Positions 11,971 to 32,387 of a stretch of DNA of 64,000 nt are shown here, in pieces (position 1 is the stretch's first letter; the number at the start of each line of letters is the position of its first letter). This DNA comes from Planctomycetota bacterium (GTDB lineage: Bacteria; Planctomycetota; UBA11346): NCBI GenBank assembly GCA_031426335.1, contig JANPLC010000241.1, positions 1,828-65,827 on the forward strand. Reading direction: 5' to 3'. The notes below the pieces were generated by a model that had not been told where the DNA came from, did no database searches, and saw nothing but the letters and a program-made list of their open reading frames with translations. Made by a program: the position numbers and the translations under genes.

Positions 11971-13308
11971 ATGGCACCTCACGACGGTATCTCGATCCAG
12001 GATCGCTGGCTGGACGCTCCGGCCACGAAGGCGGCGGGCAAAGAGCGACTGAAGCCGGTCAATAATCGCTGCGCCAAAGTCAGCCGCTATTTCGTGCGCG
12101 TGTGGGATCCCAATCTTCCAGCCAAGAACCCGGGTGGGAAAATTGGTGGCTACGCTTCAAAGTGCTTCCCGACCGTGACAGCGGGTCATGCCTGGGCTGA
12201 GCATCGTCGCGGCGAATTTCTCAAAGGCACGGCATCGGCACACACGACGACCATGACCGAACTGGGCACCGCTTTCATGACGAGCCTGCGCACGCGTATC
12301 GACGGGGCGGTCACGGAGCGACATCAAGCGCAGGTCCAGCAGGTGATTGATGGTTTGGTGTCGGCTGGAGCGCGCGACATCACCGATCCGTCGTTTCCGG
12401 ACCTCGTGCAACGCTGGCTGTCGGGCCTCCAAGCCCAACGTACTTGGGAAAAGCGCCCACGCCCGGCGTCGCCAGGATTGAAACGGAAGTTCTTGGTCAT
12501 CGCTCGTGCCGTCATGGCGTACGCCCAAGAGCGGCGATTGGTGGCCTATGATCCCCTCGCCGCGATCAGAACCGGTCGGGTCGAGCAGAAGCGCAAAGCC
12601 ATCTTTGCCATCAATGAACTTTCCGCCCTGGTCAGCGATTCAGCCCGCTGGAAGAATCGTGATAAGTGGTCAGAGGCGCGGCGCATGGTCGATGCCCACC
12701 ACGGCAATCAGAAGGAAGCCGCCAAGGCCCTGGGGATATCACCCTCAACCTTGCACTACCGCCTGAATACCCCGCAGGAAGCCGATCCCTGGTGGCTCGT
12801 CGCTGTCTTGCTGACCTACACCGGGTGCCGGATCTCCGAAGTGCTGGCGATGACACCGCGCATGGTGGATCGCCAGGCTGGAGTCCTGCTGCTGCCGGCC
12901 AGCGCAACCGGCAACAAGATGAAGCGCGACCGGCGCATCCGCTTGCAACCGGAATTGATGGCGATTCTGGCAGAAGTGCTTGATGCGGGTGCGCTCGGAA
13001 AGGACGAGCCACTGGTGGGAACCCACATGGTGAAATTCACCAGCGCGAACCTCGGCAACGGATTCAAAGACTATTGCCGCCGCTGCGGCATCGAACCTGG
13101 GCCGCGCGGTCCGCATGCGCTTCGCCACACCTTCTGCGCGCTGATGACCGCACTGGGCGTCTCACCTTTCCTGGTCATGGAATTGGCGGGGCATACGTCG
13201 GCTCAAGTTACCAGATCCTACAGCCAGTCAGCCGAAGAACTCATCGACGGTGTGGCCTGCTGGCCCAGACATGAGCCAGCACAGTTCTATCTTCGTCGAG
13301 CAAAATGA
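11971..13308 (+). CDS. int: Tyrosine recombinase / phage-type integrase
   Basis: 445 aa. Catalytic signature 'TGCRISEVLAM' (Arg), 'HALRHTFCALM' (His-x-x-Arg-His), 'LAGHTSAQVTRSY' (His...Tyr). Adjacent to the att repeat. Confidence 0.9.
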   Translation: MAPHDGISIQDRWLDAPATKAAGKERLKPVNNRCAKVSRYFVRVWDPNLPAKNPGGKIGGYASKCFPTVTAGHAWAEHRRGEFLKGTASAHTTTMTELGTAFMTSLRTRIDGAVTERHQAQVQQVIDGLVSAGARDITDPSFPDLVQRWLSGLQAQRTWEKRPRPASPGLKRKFLVIARAVMAYAQERRLVAYDPLAAIRTGRVEQKRKAIFAINELSALVSDSARWKNRDKWSEARRMVDAHHGNQKEAAKALGISPSTLHYRLNTPQEADPWWLVAVLLTYTGCRISEVLAMTPRMVDRQAGVLLLPASATGNKMKRDRRIRLQPELMAILAEVLDAGALGKDEPLVGTHMVKFTSANLGNGFKDYCRRCGIEPGPRGPHALRHTFCALMTALGVSPFLVMELAGHTSAQVTRSYSQSAEELIDGVACWPRHEPAQFYLRRAK

Positions 13309-13434
13309 ACGCACCACCAGGTGCAGGTGGTTGCTCATCACCGCAAAGCCGGCCACTTTGACCGCGAACAAGCCGGCCAGGGACCGCAACCGCTCATCAA
13401 CCTCGCTCGACGGTGATCGAACCGTCAACCGCAT
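13306..13434 (-). pseudogene. Remnant of an IS200/RAYT-type (Y1/HUH) transposase
   Basis: 'LAGLFAVKVAGFAVMSNHLHLVV' matches the conserved 'yvvMpNHvHLl' block of REP-associated tyrosine transposases. Only ~40 aa remain. The fragment abuts the integrase stop and lacks N- and C-terminal parts. Confidence 0.45.
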
Positions 13435-13949: not shown

Positions 13950-14480
13950 TCAAGCTTCCCATGGCAGAGGATAACCAAACGAAGCGATCTTCGGATCCTC
14001 ACGAAGAACATAGTCTTTATCCCCCGGCCATAGTGAATCATCATAATTCAAAGATCTCTCTAGTGCATTCTTAATAAATATGAACAGAGTCGAAGCCGCA
14101 ATATAGCATACGTTCGTTCGTCCTAGTATTCCTTCAACAAAGACGATTGGGGGATCCAATGGATTATCCCCCAATACAGCGACATAGTGATTTCCATGAC
14201 TATCACCAGCAATCGGCAAGAACGAAGCTGATCTGTATTCCGGAATCATACTTGCTATTTTTACGATCTCTTTGGCCCCCAAAAAATCACAGCCAATCAC
14301 TTCCGCTCCATCGACTTTCGTAAGCCATGACTGCAGATCAGCAGGGAACTCCATGCCGATTTCAATCGACGCTTCCTTAATTTCAATTGTCGATGCGCCG
14401 CGATATGCTATCGACCCACCAGAATACGTTCGGGATTTGGCTAGAATCTGGAGAAGAGTGTTTAAATTTGGCTTATTCAT
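13950..14480 (-). CDS. SMI1/KNR4 (SUKH-1)-type immunity protein
   Basis: 176 aa, starting 12 nt after the toxin stop with AGGA 4 nt upstream. 'IEIKEASIEIGMEFPADLQSWLTKVDGAEV' and 'FLPIAGDSHGNHYVAVLG...PPIVFVEG' fit the SUKH pattern (lP.dy..fl...nG ... ia.dg.Gn.y). Confidence 0.75.
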   Translation of the reverse strand: MNKPNLNTLLQILAKSRTYSGGSIAYRGASTIEIKEASIEIGMEFPADLQSWLTKVDGAEVIGCDFLGAKEIVKIASMIPEYRSASFLPIAGDSHGNHYVAVLGDNPLDPPIVFVEGILGRTNVCYIAASTLFIFIKNALERSLNYDDSLWPGDKDYVLREDPKIASFGYPLPWEA

Positions 14481-14492: not shown

Positions 14493-17400
14493 CTATGGGA
14501 ACGCAATGAATGTCGCGGCATCTTGTGCAAATTGACCATCTATGAGCGCAGCTTGAGCCTCGACCTCAGCTTTAGTGACGTTACCGACTCCGCCTTTTAA
14601 ACGCAACCATTCCTCCCATGCTTTGGTTATCTTAGCATGGACCTCTATTTTTACAGTAAATACATTCTCAATGGCGTTCGGATTATCAGGGAACAAGTGA
14701 CTGAATTGCAACTCGATGCGATGATGAACTTCGTATCCGGCCTCTTTAAGCCCCTTTCCTCCCAGCAATTTAGTTCCCGCACGTTCTGCCCAAAGTCTTC
14801 TGGCTGCTTCGCGTACGGCATCTCGTTCGAGGGACGACAATTGGCGTCTATTTAGCTGCGCCTTCATGACGCTTACTTGCCACTTCGGAAGTTTAGTAAA
14901 CGTCTGAAAAAAACGCGTTTCTCCCATTCTACCTAAGACAGCCAAGGCTCTTCCCCATGCCTTATCGCAAAAACCACCAACGTTGTGAACCCAAATAGAT
15001 GGAGAATCTTCTTTTGAGTTCGAAGAGGCAACGAAATAGGTCTGCCAATCGGCCACGGAGAAATTGTACGTTGTGAAGCACTGCCCTATCGGGGCCTCTT
15101 CACAGCGCACCGATTCAACTACGGCACATTCATTGCCTGCCATATGCAACTGATAGCCGGGTTTCAATTCACCCATTGGAACCCAGGCACTAAGCTGCTT
15201 AACCCAGAAGGGGTGGGTGGTTGTTCCGACCAACTCAGACGCATCACCATCCATGTTCCCAACATCTAAACGATGATAACGAAGATGGATTAAAGTGGCT
15301 GGCGTGGTCATGAACGTCTGTTCAACGTGTTTGAGCCCTTCCGCACCACTTCGTTCATCACGCGACCAAACCATGTCGCCAACACGAATGTCCTCTATCG
15401 CTTTAAAACCGTTCGAAACTTTCACCCGCGTTCCCGCCACAAAGCAAATCAACTTTGTTGAAGCACGTACCAAAGTCTCCGTCGGGAGGAAGTCGCGCAC
15501 TGCTTGTCGTGCTTTTGGTAATGCTGACTCTTCAACCTTTTTAAATAAGACTTTACCTGATTTTCCGACGACACTTCCTACTTTCGCAAAGGGGACAAAG
15601 TTGACCAGTAAAAATCCACCGTTGACTCCCACCGCAGCCCAGGTGGCATCACCCTCGGGAAGCACAATCCTTTTTCCTCCACCAATGTAACCAGCCCAAG
15701 CGGTAACATCGGCCAATTGATTCATTGCTGACAAAACTTGGTTGGCGCCGTTCATCGCCGTTTGCTCATTTATCGGACGTAACTCCCATCCTATTTCCCT
15801 GGCAATTTTCATCCGCTCCTCTCGGCGAGCTTCGGCAGCAGCATGTATGTTGCCATTCGCCTTATTATAGGCATCAATTGCTGCGGGGAGATCGAAGGTT
15901 CCTTCTTTTTCGTACCTCAGGTCTCCAGCTTTCTTTCCAACAGGTATATCAGTATCACCAGATTTGTATGTGGCGTGCGGGGCAACCCACAAGTACACAG
16001 CTCGTGCCTCCGGAAGATCCCATGTGCGAATGGTCCCTCCGAATCCAACGTGAGCGATGAACGCATTTTGAACGATGCGCTCTACCCCAAGATCTACCCC
16101 TGGGATTACGACATCCTTCGTAAGCGCCGCTATGACGCTGCTGGCTAAACTCAGGGCATTGCCTTCAGGCGCACCCAACAGTTCTGGTATTGTCCACAGA
16201 GGAATGTCATCATCCAAGACGGGATTATCGAGCGCGTTCCAGACCCAACCGGTAGTTTCAGCGTTTTCACCTTGGACCAAGTACCAGGCCATGAGCTTGT
16301 TATCGAGGAATGTTTTGGGGTTGGTTCGAGCAAGTTTGACCTCTGCCGGCGTCAATGAGTCGCTCGTTACATTGCCCGCCACTTGTATTGCGCCCTGTCG
16401 CTTAAGGGTTACTTGGTAACTGCCCTGCACTGTTTTATCAAAGCCGCGTACTTCTTGCGTCGTCCAGGTATCCTCCTCATTAAGTCCAATGACGCTTGCA
16501 CTAATGCGCTGAGCGGCATCAGGAGACACAACTACAGTTACCGTATAAGTGTCGGGCACCGGAGTGGGAAGACGTGATCGCGCAATACCGATGGTAACCG
16601 AGAGATGAATAGTGTCATTGGTGCCTGAGAACGTAACCGGACCTTCGTCCTCACCTTCGCCGCCTTCGGTACCGACGGTTCCATTAACGGGTGCCCACGC
16701 TGGATCTACAAAAACCATTGCATTGCCTGTCGTTGCATCCTTCACGTAATAGCGGTCGTCCTTCTTGATAAGATCAACCCTGGAGCCGTTTTGGAACCAT
16801 TTGTGGCTCGTAATTACAGTGTCAATAATCGACGGCGCTTGTATCGATACTCGATAAGGCGTGACGGTTTCTTGCTGTGCTGGGGAGATAGCAGAAGAGA
16901 CAGACCGCAGGGAGAACGATGGCGCATCGGAAGTAATCGTAGTTGAGTATTGATATTGTGTCGAGGTCACTCCACCAATTTGAATGAAATTTGCAGTGAC
17001 CGCTTTTGATTCAGACATCTTCACCGAAGCTGGGATTGAAACACCCGTGGTAGCGCCAAGAAGATCCACTTGGATCACGGTTGAGCCAACTGTCGCGGTG
17101 AAAACCTTGGTGTCTGCACCTGTCTCGGTCAGTGCGATTGGTGTCGGACTCGGACCCGCGATGTGGTTAGGCAGTGTGATCGCGATCTGGTTAACGACTG
17201 TTGGTGAGAGCACGCCGCTAAGGTCGACTTTATAGGTCATCACTGTTGGAGCAGTAATTGCATTACTGCGAACTATAAGAGCCTCGAAACGGAGCGATGA
17301 AGGACCATTTTCCGTAAATACTTCTTCGCAATACCATTCACCATTCTTCTCGACTGTAGCCGATATGGTGTCAACGAGGATTGCGTTTGTTTGACCGCCT

Positions 17401-20400
17401 TCACTAATGGACACTCGATAAACTGCCCCGACATCCTGGAAGACATTAGAACCAACCGCTGTCTCGGTTAGCGTGACGGTTGCTGGATTCTGACCAATGT
17501 ACTGGTTAGGGATCACTAGCGTGATGGCATCCGTTTGCGTAGCCCGAAGATCGCCATTGAGTTGAATTGCGACCGTCTCTCGGATAACCGGGTTAGGATA
17601 CGTACCATTCATAGTCGCCGAGAAATTGGCACTTCCCTGAATGCCGCTTTCATTCGCATCAGTCACGACATTCATCAAGTGCTCGCCTTCCCAGGCAGGG
17701 ATCGTCACGGAACCGGAGAATGCAAAGCTCTTAGAATACGGCTTCCAGTCTGTTGGACTGCCGCTGACTGTGGATAATGCAATATCCCCCACCCACTTAT
17801 TGTGGTGATAAACATGGACCGACTTCATCGCTGGGGCTTCGAGCAAATTCGCAACCGCATCGGTAACGGTGCCAGATAGTGATACCGTGGCGTTTACACC
17901 GCTGACAGTGACGCTCGGCGATACCGAGATATTAGGCACTGACATAGTTTTGGTAATCTGAGGCGGGTTTTGATCTAACTCTGTCTCATAATTGATTTTC
18001 ACAATCGCCAGCGCCTCCTTCATCCGATGCGCGCCGTTGGCTCCGGCGAATTGTCTGCTTAATTCATCTGGATAGGCGTGCACGGCTCCAACTTTTACAT
18101 CAACGCTGTAAAGTCCCGCCGCGACGTCGGCGCCAATAAATACAGTGAATTCCAATACTTGGTAAGTTCTCATATTTGAATTTTGATCCTGCTCATCTCG
18201 GAGTCGCTGGCTCACAATGGTGACCTTATCGGAACCCGGCTTGACTCCAGGTGCCACAGAAATTGCTTGCGTAACATCCTTCTCTGAGCTTCCATTAATC
18301 TTGATGAACCGAATGTAATCTGCTGACATTCGATTAAAGTCATCAAATCCAAATTCTTTTGAGAGAAAATTCCCCCTAATGGTGAAGGCGGCCGTCATTC
18401 CTGATGCCGCTATATTTGGCGAAAGATTTATAAAGTTGAATACTGGCATGGATTGCCCTACCGAGAATCCAAGAAATGTATCCGTATCCGTCCCATACTG
18501 ATAGGGGCCAAGGCCAACAGTTGCGTAGTCGTTGCCTACTCGCCAGATCTCATAATCGTTGATGTACGATCCAATCGGAGCCAGATCGACTGATGCCGAT
18601 AACGCATCTCCATTACGGGTGACGGGGTGATTTGCGTTTCTTCCGCGATCGACGCGAAGCACTGGGAGCGCGCTCGGATCTCGCACCTGTGAAAGAGACG
18701 GGAAATTAAACTGAATTTCCTGTCGCTTCATGCCTTTTTTAAATGCCGGCTCGTAATTTAATACTGCGGGGCGATAATATCTGTCTGTTCCTGACCCCGG
18801 AGAATAGGGATAATTTTGAATGACCCCGCCATACAACATCGATGCGACATCGATCCCATTTCCCGCAAATGTGACTTGGGTTTTGAACGCCTTTGCGACG
18901 CCCAATAATGGATCGAAGGTCGCAGGATTGACCGTAATTGACGTAACTTGATGGCTATCATTATAGCCATAGTCATACCGTTGTCTTATGTCAAAAAATC
19001 CACCTGGCTCTGACAGGGAGAAAGTTTGAATGACTGACGTTCCTGTCAGCGAATTATACCCGGCCTGTTTAAATGTTGTCGTTCCATGTGCTCCCGAAGC
19101 GGGGTCCGTAAAGGTCGGCAGTCGGCTAAAATTTCCATAGCCAACATAATCTTGGGGCTGAAGGCCACGGAATTCATACTTTTTCTTGACGATATTTCCA
19201 ATCCAGTCCCTAAAGTAATAGGTATCTGTTTTGGCAATCTGATCTTTCTCCGCACCTGTGATATTAACAGGATTGTTCAACGTGAAGGACTGGCCCATTT
19301 GACCACTCGTAGGTTTACTCGGGACGCCTTGCCATGCCTCTTCTGGGTACCAGCCCATAGATAGATCGCTGGGCCAAGAGAGCCAATAGACGGGCGAGGT
19401 GTAACTATAGACGGACTCTGTTGCTGCTTCGACCGATGGATCCACCAACATCGCATCGACATAAAATAAATCCTTTACCTTCTCTGGTGGTACGGGATAA
19501 GGCTGATATGTATCCTCGAGGTAATTACCACATCTATCACTTATATTAACTGCATAGAAGGAGGTGTAACTCCTTGTGTTTAGCGAAAATGGCGTGTGAA
19601 ATCCGTTCAGCTTCCACCCAATAAATTCTCCTCCTTCGTCTACAATATTACTTTTTAGCAGAGGCGCATTATTCTTGTCAAAGACTTTGAACGACGATGA
19701 ATTTTTCAGTCCAGTTACTTCATCTGGCGCCTTGATGGTGACTGAAAAGTCCTGGGCATTGAAGCAAAGTCTTTGCCTATACTTGCGGAGATTCCCGTTC
19801 CCGGTGAACCCGAGTTCTGGGTTGGAATTGAGGAAGATGAATTTTTCTCGCTGATATGCGGATGTTTTTAAAGGTCCGTTCGAAATAACCAATGGCTCAG
19901 TGGGGCTGTCCCACAATGATTTGTCGGCGAGTATTTCGAGCTTAGGCGGCGAGCGATCTACCACGAGTCTTTCTGATAAACGGATAGTTTGCATTGCATT
20001 TTCTTGCGCTCTGGAGGCGTTGGCATATGCGACAAACTCAAAAATCCCTTCGCTAGCGAACTTGAATGACGCCGTTCCGCTAGATCCCGGTATTCTATAT
20101 TCCTGGCCATCCGATGAGCTTACGATTATTTCGGATACGACTCCTCCTCCATAAGATTGAGCTGAAGCGGTGATGAGCACCGGGGTCGAAGGATTTCCGC
20201 CTGTGTTCGTAAAGGAGAAGTTTTCGCCTTTGATTTCACCGTGCTTGTCACCAGTCAAAGAACTGTCTAAGTAGGCAATTGATAGAACTGGCGGCGCCAG
20301 AGGCGTGCCATCTGGGCTCCCCTGTTCTGTCGTTTCCGATCCGGTCGGCCAACGAAGAACAGCGATTTTCTTTGGCCCTAACACTCCGCGGGCATCCTGA

Positions 20401-23400
20401 TATTGCAGAATAATGGAGGCGGTGGTCGTACCGGCTGCTGCCAATGAAGCCCTAATGGCAAACCCGCCGTTGGTTAACGTAGACACCAGAATCAACCCAG
20501 GAGTTGTGGTAGTCGCGAGAACAGCTGTGATATCATGACCATAGGGTACGATCCCTGAAGCCTCTACGACTAACCCTTTTCCATACTGATAGGTAACTGC
20601 GGCAGCGGGCAATTCGTCGCTGTATAGTGTGATTGCGGCGACGGCGCCATCGCTGCCTAGATTAAAATTGCTGCTAGTGCCAAGAGTGACGTCAATCGAT
20701 TCGGCGGTCTCAATTTCACCATCATCGCGCGGCGTGATCGTGATTAGCGAACTGGTTTGGTTAGCCAGGATGGTGACCAATCCGGTAAGGCTGAGGTAGT
20801 CGATGCCGGGTGTGGCCGAACCTCCGACGGTATACGGCACGGTTAGTGTCGTAGTCGAGGGGGCCGACCGCGTCACGGTGAACGTGGCAGTGGTCAGTCC
20901 GGCCTCTGTTGCGACGTTGTCGGTGGCAGAGATACGCACCGTTGGCCGTTCATCGTCACCGATCGTTACGGTTGCACTGCTGTCGATTCCAGGTGTGAAT
21001 GCGCCGGTGACGAGCGTGACGATCACGGTCTTGTCGCCGTTGGCCGTGGCATTATTTACCGGGGTGATGACAAGGTCGGCCGTAACCTCGTTGGCCGCGA
21101 AGGTGATGGCACTGACGTTGGGGTTGAGGGTGTAGTCGGTGCCTAGCGTGGTGCTGGCGGTACCAGTGCGCAGGAAGGGGACGCTCAGCGTCGTGGTGGT
21201 ATCGCCCGTGCGCGTGAATCGAACCGTCCCGGTGACGGGCGTCGCGCCTTCGGCCGCATTCGGCTGGAGCGCCACCACGGTCACCGTGGGGAGGTCATTG
21301 TCAGCGATAGTCACCGTGGCGTTGGTGGTGGCACCAAGGCTGTAGCCGGCTCCTGCCACCAGGGTAACCTTCACGGTTTCGTTGACCTCGGGTAGATCGT
21401 CGTCCGTCGGCGAGATGTAGAGGTCTTTGGTGGTCACGTTGGGGCCCAGCACGATCGGCCCGGTCAGCGTGCTGTAATCGCTACCCGCGGTTGCCGTACT
21501 GCCCGTCGTGGAGATGCCGATCGAGATCGTGGTCGTGGGGTCGCCGGTACGCTGCAGGGTCAGCACACCCAGCGCGCCGCCTTCGACTGCTTGGGCAGCG
21601 GTGGCGGCGATGCTGACAACTGGCGGCTCATTGTCGCTGATGCTAATCTGGGCTTGGGCTTGACCCACCCGGTAGGTCGCCTGCGGCACCAGGGTGAGAA
21701 TCACGGTTTCCGCGACTTCCGCGCCGGAGTCGTTGACCGGCGTAATGTTGATGGGGGCCGATTCCTGTCCGGCGAGAATCGTTACCGTGATGGTGCCAGT
21801 ACCGGTGATGCTGGTTGGCGTGGCCGTGTAATCCGTCAGCGCGGTGGCCGTGCCGGCGCGGGTCAGTGTAACCGTCAACGGATTGGCCGTCGAGCCGCTG
21901 CGCGTCAGCATAAACGTACCCGTATCCGGGCCGGTTTCGCTGACCGCAGCATCGGACACTGCCAAGTCGACGATCGGGAAGTCGTCGTCATGCAGGATAA
22001 TCGCAACGCTGCTGGTGATGATGCCATAGGAGCTGGGTCCAATGGTGGCGGTGATGGTTTCGTCACCTTCCACCGTCGTGTCGTCACGGTTGGTGGTGAT
22101 CGACACGGGTGGCGCTGAGGCATTGCCGGTAGGAATAGTCAATGTGCCCGAGGGAACCGAACTGCTGTAATCCACGTCTAATGTGGCCCCCGACAGGGCG
22201 AACGCGACATTCAGCGCGGGCCCGCTAAAATCACCCGTCCTGGTAACGGTCAGCGTTACTTGCTCATTTGCATTTTCCGTGACCTCGGTGCGGGAAGCCG
22301 TGATCGTCAACGTCGCATCTTCGATCGACGTGCTGGCCGACCAGGAACCGCTGATCGCAAACGGCACCGTGGTGGACGCCTGCAGCAGGAGGATTGCGGT
22401 CTCCGTGCCTTCCACCAACGCGTCCGCCTTCGCCGCTACCGAGATGTCGACGAACGTTGCGTTGGCCGGGATGGTCGCCGTGGTAATCACTGCGGGGGTA
22501 GCGGTGAAATCTGTATTTAGCACCGCATTGCCGCTCCATTGAACTGGAATGGCGAGCGCGCTCGTCGACGTATTGTTTCGGGAAATGCGGATTTTGCCCT
22601 GATTGGCGGTGTTGGGCTCCTTCACCTCGGCGTCGGTGGCTGCGATGGTAAGGGTGCAATCCTTGATGGTGGCGGTCGCGCTGGGCGTGGCACCAATGTT
22701 GTAGGTTGGCACGCCGATCAGGGTCAGCACCACCGTTTCGTCCGCTTCGGTGATCTGGTCACCCAGTGCGGTGAGCGTCACCGTGGTGGAGGTGGCATTC
22801 GCAGCGATGGTCGCGGTGCCGGACAGGGCGGTGTAGTCGAGGCCAGGGGTCGCGGTGCCGCTGACCTGGTACGTGACCGTCAGGGCTGCGGTGGTCGCGG
22901 CTGGGCGGGTAATGGTGAAGGTGGCGTTGTCACCACCGGGTTCGACCGCCGTCGCGTCCGTGGCGCTGATCGTCAGGGTTAGAACTTCGTCATCCGTAAT
23001 GGTGACCGTGGCACTGGCGGCGGCTCCAATGGTGTAGGTCGCCGTTGGTGTGGTCGGGATGATGGTGGCGATGACCGTTTCCGGGCCTTCAACGAGTGCG
23101 TCCTGCACCGGGGTGATGGTCAGGGTAGCCGTCGCCACGCCGGCATTGAAGGTGACCGTGGTTCCGGTGGGGTTTCGCGTGTAGTCACCGCCGGCCGTGG
23201 CGGTGCCGGTGATCGCGACGGAGACGGTCAAGGCATTGGTGGTGCTGACACGCGTCAGCGTGAATACGCCATTGGTGGGTGTGGCCGCTTCGGTCGCGTT
23301 GGGCGTGGTGGCGGCAATGGTGACCACATCATCATCACGAATGGTCAGAGTGGCGACGCTGGGGGTGCCGACGGTGTATCCGGTACCGGCAATCACGGTC

Positions 23401-26400
23401 ACTACGATGGTCTCATCCACTTCGTGGAGGGAATCCTGCTTGGCCACGACCGCCCGCGTCACGGATGCGACGCCAATCGGGAAGGTGATCTTGGTGCCCG
23501 TGTCGGTCGGGTCGGCGTAGTCGGTGTCCACGGTCGCCGTCGAGCCGGTCAGGCTGAGATTCGCCGTCAGGGCTGCTGCCAGCGAGCCGGTCCGGGTGAA
23601 GGTGACGGCGCCATAGTGCGTGCCGTCTTCGGTGACCACTGGGTCGGTGGCCGCCACCTGCACGGTGATGGCGTCGTTGTCAGTGATGGTGACGGTGTGG
23701 ACTTTGATGGTGTCCAGGGCGCCGTTCACCGGTGCACTCAACGTGATGATGGCGGTCTCATTGGCTTCCACCGTGGCGTCATCGCGCACCTGCAGGGACA
23801 GGATCTTGCTGGTCTCGCCTGGGGCGAAGATCAGGGTGCCGTTTGGCAGGTAATAGTCGTCACCATTGCCGGTGGCGGTGCCGGTCAGGGCGTAATTGAC
23901 CGTCGTGGTCAGCGAGTAGGGGAACGACAACACGACCGGGATATCGATCTGGGTTCCGGATTCGCCGACTGATGAGGACGCGGCCTGGAAGGCGATCAGC
24001 GGGGCATCGTTGTCCTTGATGGATACGGTGGCTGCTGCTGGGGTTCCCACCACATAGCCAGTGCCGGAGGCCACCGTCAGCGTGACGGTCTCGTCCGGTT
24101 CGGAGAGCGTATTGTCGACGGCAGTCAACGTCACCGTGGTGCTCATCTGGCCTGCAGCCAGATTCACGGTCGCCGGCAGTGCCGTGAAGTCGGAGCCCAC
24201 CGTTGCCGTGCTGGTGGTCGTCAGGTTGATCGTCAGCGCCGGGGACGTGACACCGGCCGTGCGGATGATGGTGAACAGACCGGTGTCGGGACTGCCTGGC
24301 TCTGACGCGATCGCATCTGTGGCGGCGATCGAGATGCCTTGTTCGTCATCCAGGATGGTGACGGTCGCGGCGTTGGGGCTTCCGACCGTGTAGCCGCTGC
24401 CCGTGGCGATGGTCAGAGTCACCGTCTTGCTGGCTTCCAGCAACGTGTCGTTGATCGGGGTTACGGGGACCGTGGTCGTGGACTGACCGGTAGCGAAGGT
24501 CGCCGTGGCCGGCAGAGCCGTGTAGTCGGCTCCCGCACCCGCTGATCCTCCCGGCGTGACCGTGACCATCAGCGCGACGCCGTTGAAGCCGCTGCGCGTC
24601 AGGGTGAAAGTGCCGGTATTCGACGGCTCAGCTGCATTCGCATCCGTCGCCGCAATGGTGATCGTCGGGAGGTCGTTGTCGGCGATGGTCACGGTCGCGC
24701 TGGCGGTACCGATGAAATAAGCCGCATTGGCCGTGATGGTCGCAATCACCGTTTCGGAACCTTCGTAGGCAGTGTCATTGACCGGCGTGGCCGTGACCGT
24801 CGCCGAGGCGGCGCCGGCCGAGATGGTCACGGAGGTCGTGATGGCGCCATAGTCGCTCACCACCGCCGTACCGCCAAGAGTGAAGACGACTGTCAGCGGG
24901 TTGGTGGTGATGCCCGTGCGCGTGAACGTAAAGGTGCCGTTGTCGGGGCCGGTCTCCGACGCCGCCGCGTCGGTCGCGGCGACCGACACCGTCTGTTCGT
25001 CGTCGACGATCGTCACCGTCCCGGCGATGGTGCCGCCGAGGTAGTAGCCGGTGCCAGTGGTCAGCGTCACGATCACCGTCTCGTTCGGTTCGTTCAGCGC
25101 GTCGTTGACCGGTGTCAGCGTGATGGTCTTGCTCGCAGCACCCGCAGGGATCACCACCGTGGTCCCCAGTGACGTGAAGTCGCTCGCCGACGCCGTCCCG
25201 CTCACCGCCAAGTTGACGGTCAGGGCCGCCGTGGTCACACCCGTGCGCGTCACCGTCCAAGTGCCGGTATCTGGGGTGGCCGATTCCGCTGCGTTGGCAT
25301 CCGTCGCGGCGATCGTCACCGTCTGTTCATCGTCGACGATGGTGACGGTGGCAGCCGACGGTGAACCCGCCGTGTAACCGGCAGCCGTTACCACCGTGAC
25401 GATCACTGTCTCGTTGGGTTCGTTGAGCGCATCGTTGGTCGGCGTCAGGGTCAGCGTCTTGTTCACCGAACCCGCCGGGATCACCACGCTGGTCCCCAGC
25501 GACGTGAAGTCGCCCGCCGACGCTGTCCCACTCACCGCGAAGGTCACCGTCAGAGCGGCGGTCGTCGCGCCCGTGCGCGTGAAGGTGAACGTGCCAGTAT
25601 CCGGGGTGGCCGATTCCGTCGCGTTGGCATCCGTCGCCGCGATCGTCACCACCGCATCGTTGTCGGCGATGGTCACCGTCGCCGCCGACGGCGATCCGAT
25701 GGTATAGCTGCCCGTCGTCAGGGTCATGATCACCGTCTCCGACGGCTCACCCAGCGTGTCGTCCACCGGCGTCACCGTACGCGTCGCCGTCGCCGAACCG
25801 GCAGCGATCACCACCGGCACGGTCACTGACGCGTAGTCACCCGACACGGCAGTGCCGCCCAGCGTGACGTTCACCGTCAGCGCCGCAGCGGTGGTCCCCG
25901 TGCGGGTGATGGTGAACGTGCCGGTGTCCGGCCCCGTCTCCGACGCCGCAGCGTCGGTGGCGGCAATCGATACTCCCTGCTCGTCATCGATGATGGTCGC
26001 CGTGGCGTTGGCGGGGCTGCCCACGGTGTAGCCGGTGCCGGTGGCCAGGGTGACGATCACCGTTTTGTTCGGCTCGGTCAGCGTATCCTGCAGCGTAGTC
26101 ACGGTCAGCGTCTTGGTTGTCGCTCCCGCAGGGATCACCACGCTGGTACCCAGCGCAGTATAGTCGCTGCCCGTCGCGCTGCCCGTGACGGTGAAGTTCA
26201 CCGTTACCGCCGAGCTGGCGATGCCCGAACGCGTCAGTGTGAAGGTCGCGGTGTCGCCCCCCTCGGTCGCGGTTGCGTCTGTCGCCGCGATGTTGATCGA
26301 CGGTGGGCCGACCACGCTGACCACCGCCGTGCCGGTCTTGCCGCCGCCTTGGACCGTCACGTTGTGCGGACCGCCCGCCGTCGCCGATGCTGTGAACAGG

Positions 26401-28805
26401 CCACCGGAAGTGATGGTGCCGCTCGCCGCTGGGGCCACCCACGGACCAAAGGTCGGCTGACTTACCATTGCCTGGCCAAACTGGTCGTTGGCCACCGCGG
26501 TGAACTGCTGAGTTCCGCCCGTGGCTACCGACACCGGGGTCGGTGTCACCGCTACCGTGGTGATGGTCTGGTTGACGATGACCGTCACGTCGCTCGGCGC
26601 CGAGGTAGCATTGTTCGCATCCTTCGCCGTCGCGCGCAAGACGTAGGTCCCCGCCCGGGTGAAGGTCGCCGTCACGCTCTTGGCCGCGTTGGTGTTATTG
26701 GCGCTGAACGCCACCGAGGCCGGTGGCGTACCTGTCGTGGCCCAAGTATAGATCAGCCCTGGCTCTCCCGCGTCATCATCGCCGTAGGCAGTCAGCGTGG
26801 TCGTGGTACCGGTGACCGGGCTGGCACTGGATTTCGCCGCGATGCTGATGATCGGCGTGCCGTTGGTGATGGTGACCTGCGCGGTGCCGGCGGTTGGGAC
26901 GCCGGTGCCGGTGGCGGTCACCGTGTATGGGCCGCCAAGGGTCTGGCTGGCCAGGAATACGCCTGGGGCAGTAGTCGTGTAGGCGCTGCCGGCCAACACC
27001 ACCGTGCCGACGTCCTGCGTCTGCCACGGCCACTGCATCGTCGCCAGGGCGGTGGTGCCGATGAGGATTTGCACGTTGTCGAACGCCGCCGTGGTCAACG
27101 TGGTCGCATTGTGCGACGTCACGGCCAAGCCCATGTAGACCGAAGCCCCCATGGTGACCGTCTCGCTGCCGATGAAGGTCCACGTCGCCCCATCGGTGGA
27201 GACGTAACCACTGAAGAGCGATCCGCTGCGCACCAGCTTGATCCAGCGTGGCGCCGCGTGTCCGGTGAGGATGGTGTTGACGCTGGTTCCGGCAGTGGTG
27301 GTACGGCGTTGGAACAATGCGCCCGACGCGGCGGTGACGTTGACCATCGCATTGCGCGCGTCCGCGGCTAAACCATCGCGAATCATCAGGCCGGCCTTCG
27401 CCCACGCGTCGGTGTTGGTCAGACTCGTGACACGGGCAATGAGCGTCACATCGCCCGCGGGCAGCGGACGGTGCATGAAGCGAAACTGGTCGCTGGTGCC
27501 CCAGATATCCGTGCCGGAGGCCTGGACGGTATAGGTCCCGGTCGACGGGGTGTAGGTGCCCGAGCCCACTGGCGTGGTGATGTTGATATCCTGCTGCGTC
27601 CAGCCACTGGGTAGAGCACCAGCCGTGGCCGTCGCCGGGGTAATGCTGACATTGCTGAAGCGGGCTTGGGCGCGCACACCTGACTGGTGGGAGGTCACCG
27701 CCAAGCCGACGCGCACCGTGGCGGCCATGGTCACCGTGTCGGTGCCGAGCTGCGTCCAGGTGGTGCCGTCGGGGGAGGAATAACCCGTCAGCGTGTTGCC
27801 GACACGCGTCAGGCGCACCCAGTACGGCGCCGCCTGACCGGCGGTGATGACGTTGGTGCTGGTGCCGCCCACAGTGGTGCGGCGCTGGAACAACGCGCCA
27901 GCGGCGGCGGTCACGTTGGCCATGGCGTTAATCGCGTTGTCCGTCAGGCCGTCGCGCATCATCACGCCGGCCTTCGCCCACGCGTTGGTGTTTTCCAGCG
28001 ACTCAACCTTCGCGGTGATGGTGCCGTCGCCGGTCAGCTGCTGGTGTACGAATTGGAAGCCATCGTTGGTGCCCCAGATGTCGGTGCCGGAAGCTTCAAG
28101 GACATAATTGCCCTTCGGCAGGAAAGTGCCGCCGCCCGCAGTGGTCCAACTGATCGCCGGCTGGGTCGACAGCGCCGCGGCGAACTGGTCGCGTGCAGTG
28201 CCAGTGAATGCCACCAGACCGCCGCGCACCGGCGTTGCCGTCGCGGGTGTGACCACCACATCCGTGGCCGTTGCGTTCACCGTCATCGTCACTGGGTAGG
28301 TGTTGGCACTACCTTCCGCGCCAGTCGCGGTCACCGTCAGCACGTAGGTGCCGCTCAAGCTGAAGGTCGCCGTCCAGGTTTTGCGCAAATCGGGCATCGC
28401 CGCGCCGGCTACGAACGTCGCCGTACCGGGGCCGGACGTTTTCGCCCACGAGTACGTCACCGTATTTTCGCCCAGGTACCACTGCACCGGCGTCACGTAC
28501 AGCGTCGTGGTCTTCGCCGTCACGGGTGATGGCGATGCGGTCGGGGCAGCGGGGAAGTACGGCACCAACTGGCATTTGAAGCTGGCGCCAGAGGCCACTT
28601 TGAAGTTGTTCAAAAGCAGGCGGCCTGTCTTAACCGTCACTACGGCCGTGGACGCGAGCACCGTCCCGACGGTCGCTGAAGTAGTCGTATTCGCGGGACC
28701 GTAGGTGACTGTTCCGCTGACAGTAGGCGGTAGGGGGACGTCAGCCGCCTTTGCCCAAGGCCAGATCAGTGACAACACCGCCAGAAGGCAGAGACGAATA
28801 GGCAT
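14493..28805 (-). CDS. Giant secreted polymorphic toxin (Sec signal, Ig-like domains, 2 ConA/DUF1349-like lectin domains, ~17 Calx-beta repeats, ~1,700 aa unassigned, pretoxin-HINT, C-terminal nuclease-like toxin)
   Basis: Uninterrupted 14.4-kb ORF (the ORF track extends to 28859). Probable start is ATG 28805, 'MPIRLCLLAVLSLIWPWAKA', with AAGGAA upstream. Domain motifs are listed in the sub-features. Confidence 0.9.
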   Translation of the reverse strand: MPIRLCLLAVLSLIWPWAKAADVPLPPTVSGTVTYGPANTTTSATVGTVLASTAVVTVKTGRLLLNNFKVASGASFKCQLVPYFPAAPTASPSPVTAKTTTLYVTPVQWYLGENTVTYSWAKTSGPGTATFVAGAAMPDLRKTWTATFSLSGTYVLTVTATGAEGSANTYPVTMTVNATATDVVVTPATATPVRGGLVAFTGTARDQFAAALSTQPAISWTTAGGGTFLPKGNYVLEASGTDIWGTNDGFQFVHQQLTGDGTITAKVESLENTNAWAKAGVMMRDGLTDNAINAMANVTAAAGALFQRRTTVGGTSTNVITAGQAAPYWVRLTRVGNTLTGYSSPDGTTWTQLGTDTVTMAATVRVGLAVTSHQSGVRAQARFSNVSITPATATAGALPSGWTQQDINITTPVGSGTYTPSTGTYTVQASGTDIWGTSDQFRFMHRPLPAGDVTLIARVTSLTNTDAWAKAGLMIRDGLAADARNAMVNVTAASGALFQRRTTTAGTSVNTILTGHAAPRWIKLVRSGSLFSGYVSTDGATWTFIGSETVTMGASVYMGLAVTSHNATTLTTAAFDNVQILIGTTALATMQWPWQTQDVGTVVLAGSAYTTTAPGVFLASQTLGGPYTVTATGTGVPTAGTAQVTITNGTPIISIAAKSSASPVTGTTTTLTAYGDDDAGEPGLIYTWATTGTPPASVAFSANNTNAAKSVTATFTRAGTYVLRATAKDANNATSAPSDVTVIVNQTITTVAVTPTPVSVATGGTQQFTAVANDQFGQAMVSQPTFGPWVAPAASGTITSGGLFTASATAGGPHNVTVQGGGKTGTAVVSVVGPPSINIAATDATATEGGDTATFTLTRSGIASSAVTVNFTVTGSATGSDYTALGTSVVIPAGATTKTLTVTTLQDTLTEPNKTVIVTLATGTGYTVGSPANATATIIDDEQGVSIAATDAAASETGPDTGTFTITRTGTTAAALTVNVTLGGTAVSGDYASVTVPVVIAAGSATATRTVTPVDDTLGEPSETVIMTLTTGSYTIGSPSAATVTIADNDAVVTIAATDANATESATPDTGTFTFTRTGATTAALTVTFAVSGTASAGDFTSLGTSVVIPAGSVNKTLTLTPTNDALNEPNETVIVTVVTAAGYTAGSPSAATVTIVDDEQTVTIAATDANAAESATPDTGTWTVTRTGVTTAALTVNLAVSGTASASDFTSLGTTVVIPAGAASKTITLTPVNDALNEPNETVIVTLTTGTGYYLGGTIAGTVTIVDDEQTVSVAATDAAASETGPDNGTFTFTRTGITTNPLTVVFTLGGTAVVSDYGAITTSVTISAGAASATVTATPVNDTAYEGSETVIATITANAAYFIGTASATVTIADNDLPTITIAATDANAAEPSNTGTFTLTRSGFNGVALMVTVTPGGSAGAGADYTALPATATFATGQSTTTVPVTPINDTLLEASKTVTLTIATGSGYTVGSPNAATVTILDDEQGISIAATDAIASEPGSPDTGLFTIIRTAGVTSPALTINLTTTSTATVGSDFTALPATVNLAAGQMSTTVTLTAVDNTLSEPDETVTLTVASGTGYVVGTPAAATVSIKDNDAPLIAFQAASSSVGESGTQIDIPVVLSFPYSLTTTVNYALTGTATGNGDDYYLPNGTLIFAPGETSKILSLQVRDDATVEANETAIITLSAPVNGALDTIKVHTVTITDNDAITVQVAATDPVVTEDGTHYGAVTFTRTGSLAAALTANLSLTGSTATVDTDYADPTDTGTKITFPIGVASVTRAVVAKQDSLHEVDETIVVTVIAGTGYTVGTPSVATLTIRDDDVVTIAATTPNATEAATPTNGVFTLTRVSTTNALTVSVAITGTATAGGDYTRNPTGTTVTFNAGVATATLTITPVQDALVEGPETVIATIIPTTPTATYTIGAAASATVTITDDEVLTLTISATDATAVEPGGDNATFTITRPAATTAALTVTYQVSGTATPGLDYTALSGTATIAANATSTTVTLTALGDQITEADETVVLTLIGVPTYNIGATPSATATIKDCTLTIAATDAEVKEPNTANQGKIRISRNNTSTSALAIPVQWSGNAVLNTDFTATPAVITTATIPANATFVDISVAAKADALVEGTETAILLLQASTTVPFAISGSWSASTSIEDATLTITASRTEVTENANEQVTLTVTRTGDFSGPALNVAFALSGATLDVDYSSSVPSGTLTIPTGNASAPPVSITTNRDDTTVEGDETITATIGPSSYGIITSSVAIILHDDDFPIVDLAVSDAAVSETGPDTGTFMLTRSGSTANPLTVTLTRAGTATALTDYTATPTSITGTGTITVTILAGQESAPINITPVNDSGAEVAETVILTLVPQATYRVGQAQAQISISDNEPPVVSIAATAAQAVEGGALGVLTLQRTGDPTTTISIGISTTGSTATAGSDYSTLTGPIVLGPNVTTKDLYISPTDDDLPEVNETVKVTLVAGAGYSLGATTNATVTIADNDLPTVTVVALQPNAAEGATPVTGTVRFTRTGDTTTTLSVPFLRTGTASTTLGTDYTLNPNVSAITFAANEVTADLVITPVNNATANGDKTVIVTLVTGAFTPGIDSSATVTIGDDERPTVRISATDNVATEAGLTTATFTVTRSAPSTTTLTVPYTVGGSATPGIDYLSLTGLVTILANQTSSLITITPRDDGEIETAESIDVTLGTSSNFNLGSDGAVAAITLYSDELPAAAVTYQYGKGLVVEASGIVPYGHDITAVLATTTTPGLILVSTLTNGGFAIRASLAAAGTTTASIILQYQDARGVLGPKKIAVLRWPTGSETTEQGSPDGTPLAPPVLSIAYLDSSLTGDKHGEIKGENFSFTNTGGNPSTPVLITASAQSYGGGVVSEIIVSSSDGQEYRIPGSSGTASFKFASEGIFEFVAYANASRAQENAMQTIRLSERLVVDRSPPKLEILADKSLWDSPTEPLVISNGPLKTSAYQREKFIFLNSNPELGFTGNGNLRKYRQRLCFNAQDFSVTIKAPDEVTGLKNSSSFKVFDKNNAPLLKSNIVDEGGEFIGWKLNGFHTPFSLNTRSYTSFYAVNISDRCGNYLEDTYQPYPVPPEKVKDLFYVDAMLVDPSVEAATESVYSYTSPVYWLSWPSDLSMGWYPEEAWQGVPSKPTSGQMGQSFTLNNPVNITGAEKDQIAKTDTYYFRDWIGNIVKKKYEFRGLQPQDYVGYGNFSRLPTFTDPASGAHGTTTFKQAGYNSLTGTSVIQTFSLSEPGGFFDIRQRYDYGYNDSHQVTSITVNPATFDPLLGVAKAFKTQVTFAGNGIDVASMLYGGVIQNYPYSPGSGTDRYYRPAVLNYEPAFKKGMKRQEIQFNFPSLSQVRDPSALPVLRVDRGRNANHPVTRNGDALSASVDLAPIGSYINDYEIWRVGNDYATVGLGPYQYGTDTDTFLGFSVGQSMPVFNFINLSPNIAASGMTAAFTIRGNFLSKEFGFDDFNRMSADYIRFIKINGSSEKDVTQAISVAPGVKPGSDKVTIVSQRLRDEQDQNSNMRTYQVLEFTVFIGADVAAGLYSVDVKVGAVHAYPDELSRQFAGANGAHRMKEALAIVKINYETELDQNPPQITKTMSVPNISVSPSVTVSGVNATVSLSGTVTDAVANLLEAPAMKSVHVYHHNKWVGDIALSTVSGSPTDWKPYSKSFAFSGSVTIPAWEGEHLMNVVTDANESGIQGSANFSATMNGTYPNPVIRETVAIQLNGDLRATQTDAITLVIPNQYIGQNPATVTLTETAVGSNVFQDVGAVYRVSISEGGQTNAILVDTISATVEKNGEWYCEEVFTENGPSSLRFEALIVRSNAITAPTVMTYKVDLSGVLSPTVVNQIAITLPNHIAGPSPTPIALTETGADTKVFTATVGSTVIQVDLLGATTGVSIPASVKMSESKAVTANFIQIGGVTSTQYQYSTTITSDAPSFSLRSVSSAISPAQQETVTPYRVSIQAPSIIDTVITSHKWFQNGSRVDLIKKDDRYYVKDATTGNAMVFVDPAWAPVNGTVGTEGGEGEDEGPVTFSGTNDTIHLSVTIGIARSRLPTPVPDTYTVTVVVSPDAAQRISASVIGLNEEDTWTTQEVRGFDKTVQGSYQVTLKRQGAIQVAGNVTSDSLTPAEVKLARTNPKTFLDNKLMAWYLVQGENAETTGWVWNALDNPVLDDDIPLWTIPELLGAPEGNALSLASSVIAALTKDVVIPGVDLGVERIVQNAFIAHVGFGGTIRTWDLPEARAVYLWVAPHATYKSGDTDIPVGKKAGDLRYEKEGTFDLPAAIDAYNKANGNIHAAAEARREERMKIAREIGWELRPINEQTAMNGANQVLSAMNQLADVTAWAGYIGGGKRIVLPEGDATWAAVGVNGGFLLVNFVPFAKVGSVVGKSGKVLFKKVEESALPKARQAVRDFLPTETLVRASTKLICFVAGTRVKVSNGFKAIEDIRVGDMVWSRDERSGAEGLKHVEQTFMTTPATLIHLRYHRLDVGNMDGDASELVGTTTHPFWVKQLSAWVPMGELKPGYQLHMAGNECAVVESVRCEEAPIGQCFTTYNFSVADWQTYFVASSNSKEDSPSIWVHNVGGFCDKAWGRALAVLGRMGETRFFQTFTKLPKWQVSVMKAQLNRRQLSSLERDAVREAARRLWAERAGTKLLGGKGLKEAGYEVHHRIELQFSHLFPDNPNAIENVFTVKIEVHAKITKAWEEWLRLKGGVGNVTKAEVEAQAALIDGQFAQDAATFIAFP
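14496..14981 (-). other. C-terminal toxin domain, HNH/EndoVII-superfamily-like (xHH-type) nuclease candidate
   Basis: The last 162 aa after the HINT 'VHN'. 'GYEVHHRIELQFSHLFPDNPNAIENVFTVKIEVHAKIT' shows an HH...N...H spacing like the AHH/GHH/SHH toxin families. Family assignment is tentative. Confidence 0.5.
14982..15446 (-). other. Pretoxin HINT (PT-HINT / bacterial intein-like) domain
   Basis: 'CFVAGTRVKVSNGFKAIEDIRVGDMVWSRD...LVGTTTHPFWV...WVPMGELKPGYQL...TTYNFSVADWQTYFVAS...IWVHN'. It has the N-terminal Cys, a TxxH block and a terminal HN. Confidence 0.85.
20640..26300 (-). repeat. Coding tandem array of ~17 Calx-beta repeats (~333-345 bp units)
   Basis: Recurrent '...(I/V)AATDA.A.E....G.FT.TRTG....LTV...(V/L)(S/G)GTA..G.DY......V.I.AG....T.T.TP..D...E..ETV...L'. 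Adjacent units at 25051-25377 and 25396-25707 are near-identical. Confidence 0.8.
27060..28120 (-). other. Two tandem ConA-like/DUF1349-like lectin domains
   Basis: Duplicated 'Y.(L/V).ASGTDIWGT.D.F.F.H..L.GD....A.V.SL.NT.AWAKAG.M.RDGL....NAM.NVTAA.GALFQRRTT.....N......AP.W..L.R.G....GY.S.DG..W'. Confidence 0.55.
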
Positions 28806-28887
28806 GATAAGCGTTTCCTTCGAATAACAGGCAAGAAACATCGCATTGCCAAGTGACAACGGTCAAGTTGCCACCCAACTGATCACC

Positions 28888-30090
28888 TCACCACATTACG
28901 ACAACCAGACCTGGACGCCCTGGCCCGTCGGGGTTCCCCCCAGAACCATATCCCGCACCTGGTGATCCAAACATGTAGCCTGCACCAGCAGTTCCCGGGG
29001 CATAACCATAAAAGTTCCCATTGAGCGATACCGGCTGGCTATTCGTCCCTTTAGCCCCTTGGATTGCTAGGCCAGTTGCACCATTGAGTACCGCAGCCCC
29101 CCCATTGAGATATGTCGCCCCACTACAAATAATGAGGGATCCAAAGCTTGTTTGACTACCAGCTAAACCACCAATCCCCCCTCCAGTACCAACTGTGATC
29201 GCATAGCTTCCTTGAGGGCTAGAAACGACAGCCCAAGCAAATCCACCGGCATTTCCTGGTTCAGCAAGTGTGGCATAACTTCCATCCTGGTTAGAACTCG
29301 TCTGACTGGGAACCCCGCCAGAACCACCCCCCAAAGCAATCACTTGAATTTGTGTGACACCAGCAGGAACGGTAAAGGTACCGCTGGAGGTAAAGAATTG
29401 GACGCCCTTCGAAGAAACCATCAGGGGCAATTGTGATGCCAAGACTTTCCCACTCGCATCGAGCGTGGCCAAGCCGTTCGCAGCCCCTTTCTCATCGCCC
29501 CGCACCGCCTGCGCGCCAGTTGCTGGCGCAGTGCGATTGATCACCACGTCGCCTGCTGTAACCGTTCCAGCAACATTTATCGGCGTGCTAAAGCTAGTGT
29601 TTGTCTTGGTCACGCGGACAGCACGAACGACGCCATCTGGGTATAGATCAATGCCGCCATTGGTCTGGCGGTTGACGATTTCAATCGGGACGTCCGAACT
29701 CGGACGCATATTCAGCTGGCTGGCACCTGCCCAGATAAAGCCCCCGCCAATGACAACTTGTCCTGCCGTTACCGTAGTGGGCGGGGATTTGGTGACGACT
29801 AATTGGCGCCCACCCACTTCGTCGTAGACCGAAAAGGTTTTCCCAGCTTGACGCCACTGGATAAACGGACCTAGAGCATCTGCTGCCCAGGTTCCCTGCA
29901 TCAGTCCGTTCAGGTAGGAATCAAATGCAAGACCAGTAGCAACCCGTCCGCCTCCAATGCGAACCTGCGTCGACGTCGGTGCGACCGGAACTGCACCGGC
30001 CACAATGACCGCACCAGCGGGATCAACAGTCAGCACATCCTCTGCCTGGAGTGCTCCGATGGCCAAGAGGCTAATTAAGATTCGTTTCAT
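28888..30090 (-). CDS. Secreted phage-tail-fibre-like protein with C-terminal glycine-rich domain
   Basis: Start at the internal ATG 30090 ('MKRILISLLAIGALQA' signal peptide). 'NGLATLDASGKVLASQLP' is a tail-fibre hallmark. 'FFTSSGTFTVPAGVTQIQVIALGGGSGG...ITVGTGGG' is the glycine-rich domain seen in phage fibres. Confidence 0.7.
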   Translation of the reverse strand: MKRILISLLAIGALQAEDVLTVDPAGAVIVAGAVPVAPTSTQVRIGGGRVATGLAFDSYLNGLMQGTWAADALGPFIQWRQAGKTFSVYDEVGGRQLVVTKSPPTTVTAGQVVIGGGFIWAGASQLNMRPSSDVPIEIVNRQTNGGIDLYPDGVVRAVRVTKTNTSFSTPINVAGTVTAGDVVINRTAPATGAQAVRGDEKGAANGLATLDASGKVLASQLPLMVSSKGVQFFTSSGTFTVPAGVTQIQVIALGGGSGGVPSQTSSNQDGSYATLAEPGNAGGFAWAVVSSPQGSYAITVGTGGGIGGLAGSQTSFGSLIICSGATYLNGGAAVLNGATGLAIQGAKGTNSQPVSLNGNFYGYAPGTAGAGYMFGSPGAGYGSGGNPDGPGRPGLVVVMW

Positions 30091-30148
30091 GGTTATCCCT
30101 GAAAATGATGTGTATCGCTCTGACACTTAGAAAAAATGAGTTAATGAT

Positions 30149-31150: not shown

Positions 31151-31210
31151 GCGGTTTTCTTGAAAAGAGGCCGGCGCTCTGCGCCTAACCGGCTACTTCG
31201 CCTCGTTGAT

Positions 31211-32184: not shown

Positions 32185-32212
32185 GGACTCTTCGCAGACT
32201 AATCGCTGTTCT

Positions 32213-32342
32213 GCCCCTCGGCCCTTCCCCTGGCCCATTCCCAGAGGCTTCCCCGGTGGCAGCCCCTGGGGCTGGCCTACGGGGTCCTCGGCGGGGCTCC
32301 GGGCGGGGACCCCGGCGGGGATGCCCACGGGGCTCTCTGGGG
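32213..32342 (+). other. C-tract / G-tract block with quadruplex potential
   Basis: Four CCCC runs (32213-32266) are followed by at least 7 GGGG runs within ~80 bp (32267-32342). Includes GGCGGGG x3 at ~12-bp spacing and the palindrome CAGCCCCTGGGGCTG (32260-32274). Confidence 0.5.
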
Positions 32343-32387
32343 ATTTACGGGCTTTTCTTGCCAAAACCCTCTCATGGCGTTTTGCCG

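Follow-up and report, generated by a model that had tools for sequence, protein, structure and literature searches.

Giant genes whose function is unknown are a known feature of Planctomycetota. CdiA, a toxin with a similar overall plan, has a variable receptor-binding region. To our knowledge, the route by which Sec-exported polymorphic toxins of Planctomycetota reach their targets is not understood. Sec-dependent polymorphic toxins with a PT-HINT domain and SUKH immunity were surveyed by Zhang et al. 2012 (PMC3482391). We analyzed a gene of this kind in a 64,000-nt stretch of Planctomycetota DNA (the window), in particular the part of its product that lies between an array of Calx-beta repeats and the HINT domain, residues 2740-4471. 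The 1,730 dark residues of this part now have a domain map. They are mostly ordinary stalk, and three short pieces stand out: a hypervariable insert, a signature domain, and a rare pre-toxin module at the junction where toxin tips are exchanged. The data suggest that residues 2740-4471 probably serve as a chassis, specific to this lineage, for a few related giant polymorphic toxins of Planctomycetota that carry a Sec signal peptide.

Residue numbers below are those of the 4,788-residue open reading frame (ORF), and position numbers are those of the window. This single ORF (14493-28859, minus strand) holds the whole stretch; window positions 15447-20640 correspond to residues 2740-4471, with an in-frame extent of 15447-20642, and the HINT cysteine (CFVAGT) begins at residue 4472. 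Over the full protein, Pfam recognized two DUF1349 domains, one PKD domain, the Calx-beta array to residue ~2731 and PT-HINT from residue 4479, and found none of the RHS, RTX, FHA or TPS families anywhere in the 4,788 residues. Between the end of the Calx-beta array and PT-HINT, Pfam was empty at E ≤ 1, and both NCBIfam and a phmmer search of PDB sequences at E ≤ 10 were empty over residues 2740-4471. Because all three were blank, they confirm an earlier note on this DNA, made from the sequence alone, which had seen no recognizable motif here. Since no Pfam family matches the stretch, its assignment to CdiA/TPS, Rhs, RTX or any of the Pfam pre-toxin domains was rejected. The frame is conserved along its whole length in relatives, more than chance would give. 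The same note had called the stretch rich in Asn, Ser, Thr and Tyr, which is a loose description: these residues make up 5.2, 8.3, 8.6 and 3.8%, not notably high values, and Thr reaches 21.8% in the Calx-beta array. The three peptides it quoted were placed at residues 3214-3244, 3435-3462 and 4387-4428.

Two AlphaFold2 models were built from family alignments, model A for residues 2740-3470 (alignment A3) and model B for residues 3465-4471 (alignment A2), with a mean predicted local distance difference test score (pLDDT) of 62 and 75, respectively. Together with Foldseek, the models predict about ten immunoglobulin (Ig)-like beta-sandwich domains in the stretch (Table 1). When model A was compared with the PDB, Foldseek found the SiiE BIg structure 2yn5_B (E 2.6e-6, probability 1.00), a match that applies to residues 2757-3232 only, as well as the Sap and SbsB S-layer proteins, cadherins, intimin and the GhpA grappling hook. 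Model B matched generic Ig arrays, an RTX-adhesin repeat and FdeC, and Foldseek against BFVD gave only generic Ig matches and nothing specific. Sequence profiles agreed for the N-terminal half: the A3 profile found SiiE 2yn3 among PDB sequences (E 5e-11, best stretch at profile positions 345-374), and 12 of the 23 homologues of this half matched Big_13 of Pfam weakly (best E 2.3e-5). The query protein itself did not reach the Big_13 cut-off, nor did it match any Pfam Ig family in the stretch at E ≤ 1. Profiles A1, A2 and A4 found no relatives among PDB sequences, and for the C-terminal half no Pfam family matched any of its 28 homologues. Because of the predicted beta-sandwich folds and the SiiE and Big_13 matches, ~60% of the stretch is, according to the models, an ordinary adhesin-type Ig-like stalk that continues the Calx-beta stalk.

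Several motifs mark these domains. The inter-domain motif VVDRSPP of domain 2 is kept as VDRTxP in relatives, and the D, G and N of the DRCGN motif in domain 3 are invariant in alignment A3; the YYFRDWIGN peptide quoted in the earlier note carries the same DxxGN motif at the C-terminal end of domain 4. In the C-terminal half, the PYRV...W.NG...YYV motif is kept in collinear homologues, and the Ig-like domain that follows the signature domain is part of the A1 profile and accounts for wider matches across the phylum. The second of two tandem 'TLTETG' domains is an optional duplicate, missing from three relatives (P0008, L031 and P0019). This pair was the only one that a windowed self-comparison detected, and weakly (3781-3807 against 3894-3920, E 0.003); the self-comparison found no other tandem sequence-similar repeats, and BLAST of the whole region against itself was uninformative. 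Foldseek recovered Ig-like beta-sandwiches in both halves, and the search for internal repeats yielded this single weak pair. The note's own alternative, that the whole region is known adhesin- or Ig-type repeat with no distinct module, holds for the ~60% with Ig-like folds and probably fails for the distinct pieces.

The first of these pieces is an insert of ~240 residues (3233-3470) with the lowest occupancy and identity of the region. Only the motif PAV..x..P[SA][WF] is kept in it, at residues 3363-3373, and over residues 3321-3440, where indels occur as well, only 12-15% of the residues are identical to those of P0008, the closest homologue, compared with ~39% overall. It is followed directly by a beta-sandwich that we refer to as Block B. 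This domain holds the strongest motif of the family, GANGAHRMKEALAVV, together with GANGAHRMKEALAIV at residues 3606-3620, and of all 30-residue segments in the region the best conserved one falls in it, with 58% identity across the family; the A1 alignment has 33 invariant columns. Neither a Pfam scan of the homologues nor a profile search of the PDB gave a match for Block B, which, from these searches, looks like an undescribed family.

The C-terminal piece (residues 4169-4450) consists of a Trp-rich, mostly helical domain and a tail with a Gly-rich hydrophobic segment. The helical domain shows the motifs W.W, GWVWN and P.LWT[IL]P, and the invariant columns of the A4 alignment are Trp, Pro and Gly only, which argues for a binding or structural role over an enzymatic one. 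The Gly-rich segment, ADVTAWAGYIGGG...ATWAAVGVNGGFLLVNFVPFAKVG, spans residues 4383-4428 and passes into a basic tail, ...KVLFKKV, that runs to residue 4442; model B has low confidence throughout 4355-4471. The family consensus of the segment is DPFxW....GG...[IV].[LI]P....ATWxAV...G.L....P.GK, followed by a Lys/Arg-rich ..FK[KR]. Identity in the segment is 62% to P0008 and 42% across the family, the second peak of the region. The earlier note had pointed to a Gly-rich hydrophobic end before HINT, and this end is indeed present as one of the two best-conserved spots (conservation peaks at 3585-3614 and 4395-4424).

Library searches for this C-terminal piece were essentially negative. Pfam at E ≤ 1 gave only four unrelated single-member matches over 15 module members, with E 0.03 or worse; PHROGs had no match for residues 4169-4450; the best E of the A4 profile against PDB sequences was 0.055; and PT-TG, PT-VENN and DUF637 showed no sequence-profile match to residues 4160-4471 or their homologues. 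Set apart by these profile searches, the ~300 residues form an apparently undescribed pre-toxin module. With Block B (3476-3629) and the module (4169-4450), the stretch offers at least two candidates for the undescribed families that the earlier note had thought possible.

The module ends where the family diverges. Fourteen homologues have the hydrophobic segment, and every one of them diverges directly after it; their alignment ends in ...ATWxAV..G.L....P.GK..K..FK[KR]. Among the relatives, some tips consist of PT-HINT with a WHH/colicin-DNase or of PT-HINT with a CdiA-CT-type RNase A (RNAse_A_bac), whereas others have the module followed directly by a toxin without HINT; one of these tips gave a weak ADP-ribosyl-cyclase-like match, and some had no assignment. 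P0008 has a tip of the same xHH type as the query, and P0016, just as close over the module, ends in another tip. Because tips vary after the shared module, with or without HINT, the module is the constant element beside a polymorphic tip, and HINT is optional. The tip of the query itself (14496-14981, minus strand) matched no Pfam family at E ≤ 0.001 and bears the motif EVHHRIE...N...H with HNH/EndoVII-like spacing. At the other end of the protein, N-terminal MPIRLCLLAVLSLIWPWAKA reads as a Sec signal, and hydropathy over the whole protein peaks most strongly at residues 16-34. This signal peptide, together with a SUKH-1 immunity gene downstream, assigns the gene product to the type of polymorphic toxin that PMC3482391 surveyed.

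Two other giant proteins, L018 (G009) and L021 (G007), have the Ig core and the signature domain without the pre-toxin module, and end in C-terminal regions of 567 and 845 residues without HINT. Hence, the chassis apparently serves other C-terminal payloads as well.

The family is small. We searched 1.84 billion representative proteins exhaustively with HMMER, taking the final 1,200 residues of the stretch (3272-4471) as the query, and recovered 51 proteins in total at E ≤ 1e-3, ~12 of which are collinear with the query to near its end. Word-indexed searches with residues 2740-4471 and 3465-3760 returned the query itself and one weak match only, and a single-protein search of genome contigs gave no match, so that an alignment-based query was needed. 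With local jackhmmer over the fetched homologues, every part of 2740-4471 was covered at a depth of 14-66 sequences. The relatives are unannotated giant proteins from metagenomes and from Planctomycetota metagenome-assembled genomes (MAGs) of lakes and microbial mats, and six-frame searches of related genomes revealed giant ORFs that share parts of the region. One such protein (G003) is collinear with residues 2744-3742 (24% identity over 1,124 columns) and a fragment (G033) with residues 3463-4450. We also surveyed 401 sampled Planctomycetota genomes with the A1 profile, which covers the signature domain and the next Ig domain, and with the A4 profile of the C-terminal module. A1 matched 21 of the 401 genomes, and matches to Block B proper fell mostly within the window's own family; A4 matched the window's own genome alone. 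One family member, L020, lies on a 5.7-kb contig (JBBQYB010000173.1, G+C content at third codon positions [GC3] 0.84) binned as a Rhodobacterales MAG, which is either a mis-binned contig or a transfer beyond Planctomycetota.

Table 1. Features of the toxin gene and of the genes downstream of it, in order of window position
Feature	Window positions	Strand	Residues	Evidence and remarks
Tyrosine integrase	11971-13308			beyond the immunity gene
RAYT transposase remnant	13261-13401	-		tblastn E 1.6e-9; ~550 nt below the immunity gene
SUKH-1 (SMI1/KNR4) immunity gene	13950-14480	-		Pfam PF09346, E 1.5e-7; 12 nt downstream of the toxin gene
PT-HINT and 162-residue xHH-type toxin tip	14496-15446	-	4472-4626 (PT-HINT)	PT-HINT by Pfam, E 7.5e-22 at 4479-4626
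Helices, Gly-rich hydrophobic segment, basic tail, linker to HINT	15447-15797	-		second conservation peak; model B pLDDT 33-66
Trp-rich, mostly helical domain (predicted)	15798-16355	-	4169-4354	model B pLDDT 69-93
Acidic Gly-rich linker, then beta-sandwich (predicted)	16356-16691	-	4057-4072 and 4074-4168	model B pLDDT 42-43 (linker), 51-76 (domain)
Small beta domain (predicted), PYRV...W.NG...YYV motif	16698-16865	-	3999-4054	model B pLDDT 78-89
Two tandem Ig-like 'TLTETG' domains (predicted)	16893-17591	-	3757-3864 and 3869-3989	model B pLDDT 78-94
Ig-like domain (predicted)	17598-17945	-	3639-3754	model B pLDDT 88-95; Foldseek matches to Ig arrays
Block B, family-signature beta-sandwich (predicted)	17973-18434	-	3476-3629	model B; A1 alignment
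Hypervariable, unmodelled insert	18450-19163	-	3233-3470	pLDDT <35
Beta-sandwich domain 4 (predicted), ends in RDWIGN	19164-19415	-	3149-3232	model A pLDDT 45-73, weaker
BIg/Big_13-like beta-sandwich domain 3 (predicted), DRCGN motif	19503-19895	-	2989-3119	model A, weaker; Foldseek top match SiiE 2yn5
Beta-sandwich domain 2 (predicted)	19923-20288	-	2858-2979	model A pLDDT 81-97; VVDRSPP at 2966-2972
Beta-sandwich domain 1 (predicted), after the last Calx-beta repeat	20319-20591	-	2757-2847	model A pLDDT 83-94; collinear in the G003 protein

The base composition of the gene changes near the start of the stretch. At residue ~2700, GC drops from ~0.65 to ~0.48 and GC3 from ~0.8 to ~0.5, and both stay low through the immunity gene. 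A fall of GC3 from the 5' repeat array through the core to the 3' end was seen in most relatives (L023, L038, L026, L035), for example from 0.78 to 0.50, from 0.75 to 0.52, and from 0.88 through 0.74 to 0.47. Because the break recurs in relatives, it is a trait of the family and not unique to the query gene. The GC3 drop supports mobility of the whole unit of core, tip and immunity gene; alternatively, it could come from GC-biased gene conversion in the repeat arrays.

The DNA directly upstream of the toxin gene (28888-38253, minus strand) encodes a Gly_rich_2 (tail-fibre-like) protein, a VapE-like protein and a GpJ-like tail-tip protein (Phage-tail_3, FNIII-A_GpJ). These phage-like genes and the integrase beyond the immunity gene place the toxin gene in a prophage-like or island setting. 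A tblastn search with three upstream ORFs and the immunity protein found no match in the fetched loci, which have short upstream flanks. Clustering of neighbouring ORFs produced one real cluster, RAYT-like (REP-associated tyrosine transposase) genes, the rest being mostly out-of-frame ORFs in GC-rich giant genes. RAYT-like genes of ~370 codons lie near the giant genes of four relatives (L014; L025, 14179-15288; L026, 14788-15699; L031, 4551-4934), directly downstream of the giant gene in L025, L026 and L031. Such genes may be involved in moving 3' cassettes.

If residues 2740-4471 are the chassis of these toxins, the Ig domains would act as a rigid spacer that extends the Calx-beta stalk, and, by analogy with CdiA, target recognition would most plausibly fall to the hypervariable insert. 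The pre-toxin module would present the toxin and perhaps help to carry it across a membrane, and HINT, where present, would then cut the tip free. The module could double as a conserved homology arm beside which tips are swapped. A bolder proposal is that the module is a new pre-toxin delivery device confined to Planctomycetota, which docks at or inserts into the target membrane, with HINT as an optional release step and the insert as the receptor binder; we regard this as tentative and rather doubtful.

A number of observations weigh against these proposals. The usual transmembrane threshold on the Kyte-Doolittle scale is ~1.6. The hydrophobic segment is only marginally hydrophobic for a membrane helix, below or around that threshold: the 19-residue Kyte-Doolittle value is 1.45 here and 1.07-1.89 in 12 relatives, the basic tail is present, and a conserved polar residue (D/E/N) sits in the middle of the segment. 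AlphaFold2 draws the segment as low-confidence beta-strands, and in such a model it could be no more than a part of the buried core. The earlier note had suggested that, if the toxin is delivered into neighbouring cells, receptor binding and translocation probably reside in this stretch; based on the hypervariable insert and on a segment at 1.45 against the usual ~1.6, that placement is conjectural. Furthermore, the multi-domain Foldseek matches are dominated by Ig domains, so the helical domain may have a known fold, and the insert could be misaligned instead of truly hypervariable. Finally, all eight proteins that were looked up are metagenome-derived singleton clusters, unnamed or called 'hypothetical protein'.

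In line with some of these points, the whole stretch might be a plain adhesin-type Ig stalk or spacer, with a C-terminal part that is just structural and packs against HINT or the toxin. Foldseek gave only Ig-type arrays for both models, profile searches link the N-terminal half to Big_13 and SiiE, no catalytic-type polar residue is among the invariant positions of the helical domain, and the strands drawn for the hydrophobic segment fit as well. However, residues 4169-4354 are predicted to be helical and not Ig, conservation is far higher in the hydrophobic segment and in the signature motif than in the adjoining Ig domains, the module holds its position beside unrelated tips with or without HINT, and the domains are not sequence repeats of each other. 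We therefore consider a plain stalk unlikely. The segment and its Lys-rich tail might otherwise be a stop-transfer anchor in the cytoplasmic membrane of the producer, with the N-terminal lectin-like domains distal and the HINT-toxin part kept in the cytoplasm, guarded by SUKH until release. The N-terminal Sec signal fits such an arrangement, as do a conserved hydrophobic stretch of ~20 residues followed by a basic cluster, in agreement with the positive-inside rule, and a SUKH immunity ORF without an evident N-terminal hydrophobic leader. Nonetheless, the hydropathy values, as low as 1.07 in relatives, and the mid-segment D/E/N speak against an anchor, the toxin would be left in the producer cytoplasm without an evident route to the target, and no precedent was found in the polymorphic-toxin survey (PMC3482391). 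An anchor of this kind is thus highly improbable.

It is also conceivable that the stretch is mainly a recently grafted foreign 3' cassette, so that its distinctness reflects horizontal origin and not a special function. The drop of GC and GC3 that persists through the immunity gene and the integrase and RAYT remnant just downstream would suit this, but the same core is collinear after Calx-beta arrays in P0008 and in the G003 protein, and the 5'-to-3' fall of GC3 recurs in the family, where gene conversion could explain it. A recent graft would moreover be compatible with a lineage-specific chassis instead of opposed to it, and as an explanation in its own right we give it very little weight. 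Taken together, these results are in favor of residues 2740-4471 being, probably, a shared chassis that bears exchangeable tips.

How does the locus compare with described systems? It shares with the polymorphic toxins of PMC3482391 a signal peptide, a long repeat stalk, PT-HINT, a variable C-terminal toxin and an adjacent SUKH-1 gene. It differs from them in that the core of 1,730 residues matches no Pfam pre-toxin domain, or any family at E ≤ 1, and in that HINT is optional, whereas every toxin tip of the family is accompanied by the new module. The N-terminal half resembles Salmonella SiiE (PDB 2yn3/2yn5) and Big_13 in its predicted tandem BIg-like sandwiches with VDxxxP and DxxGN motifs, whereas its domains are not mutual sequence repeats, the query falls below the cut-off of any Pfam Ig family, there is no type I secretion signal, and the protein ends in a toxin tip. 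The overall plan is similar to that of CdiA of the type V secretion system, with a long stalk, a variable central candidate for receptor binding, a conserved pre-toxin region where recombination joins the parts, and a polymorphic tip that has its immunity gene. Unlike CdiA, however, the locus showed no TPS domain, FHA repeats, VENN motif or CdiB partner, and its stalk is of Calx-beta and Ig type and not a beta-helix. The module could serve as a handle for toxin discovery in genomes of the Planctomycetes-Verrucomicrobia-Chlamydiae (PVC) group, and if it is a translocation device, it would represent a delivery principle distinct from those of CdiA, Rhs, and the type VI and type VII systems.

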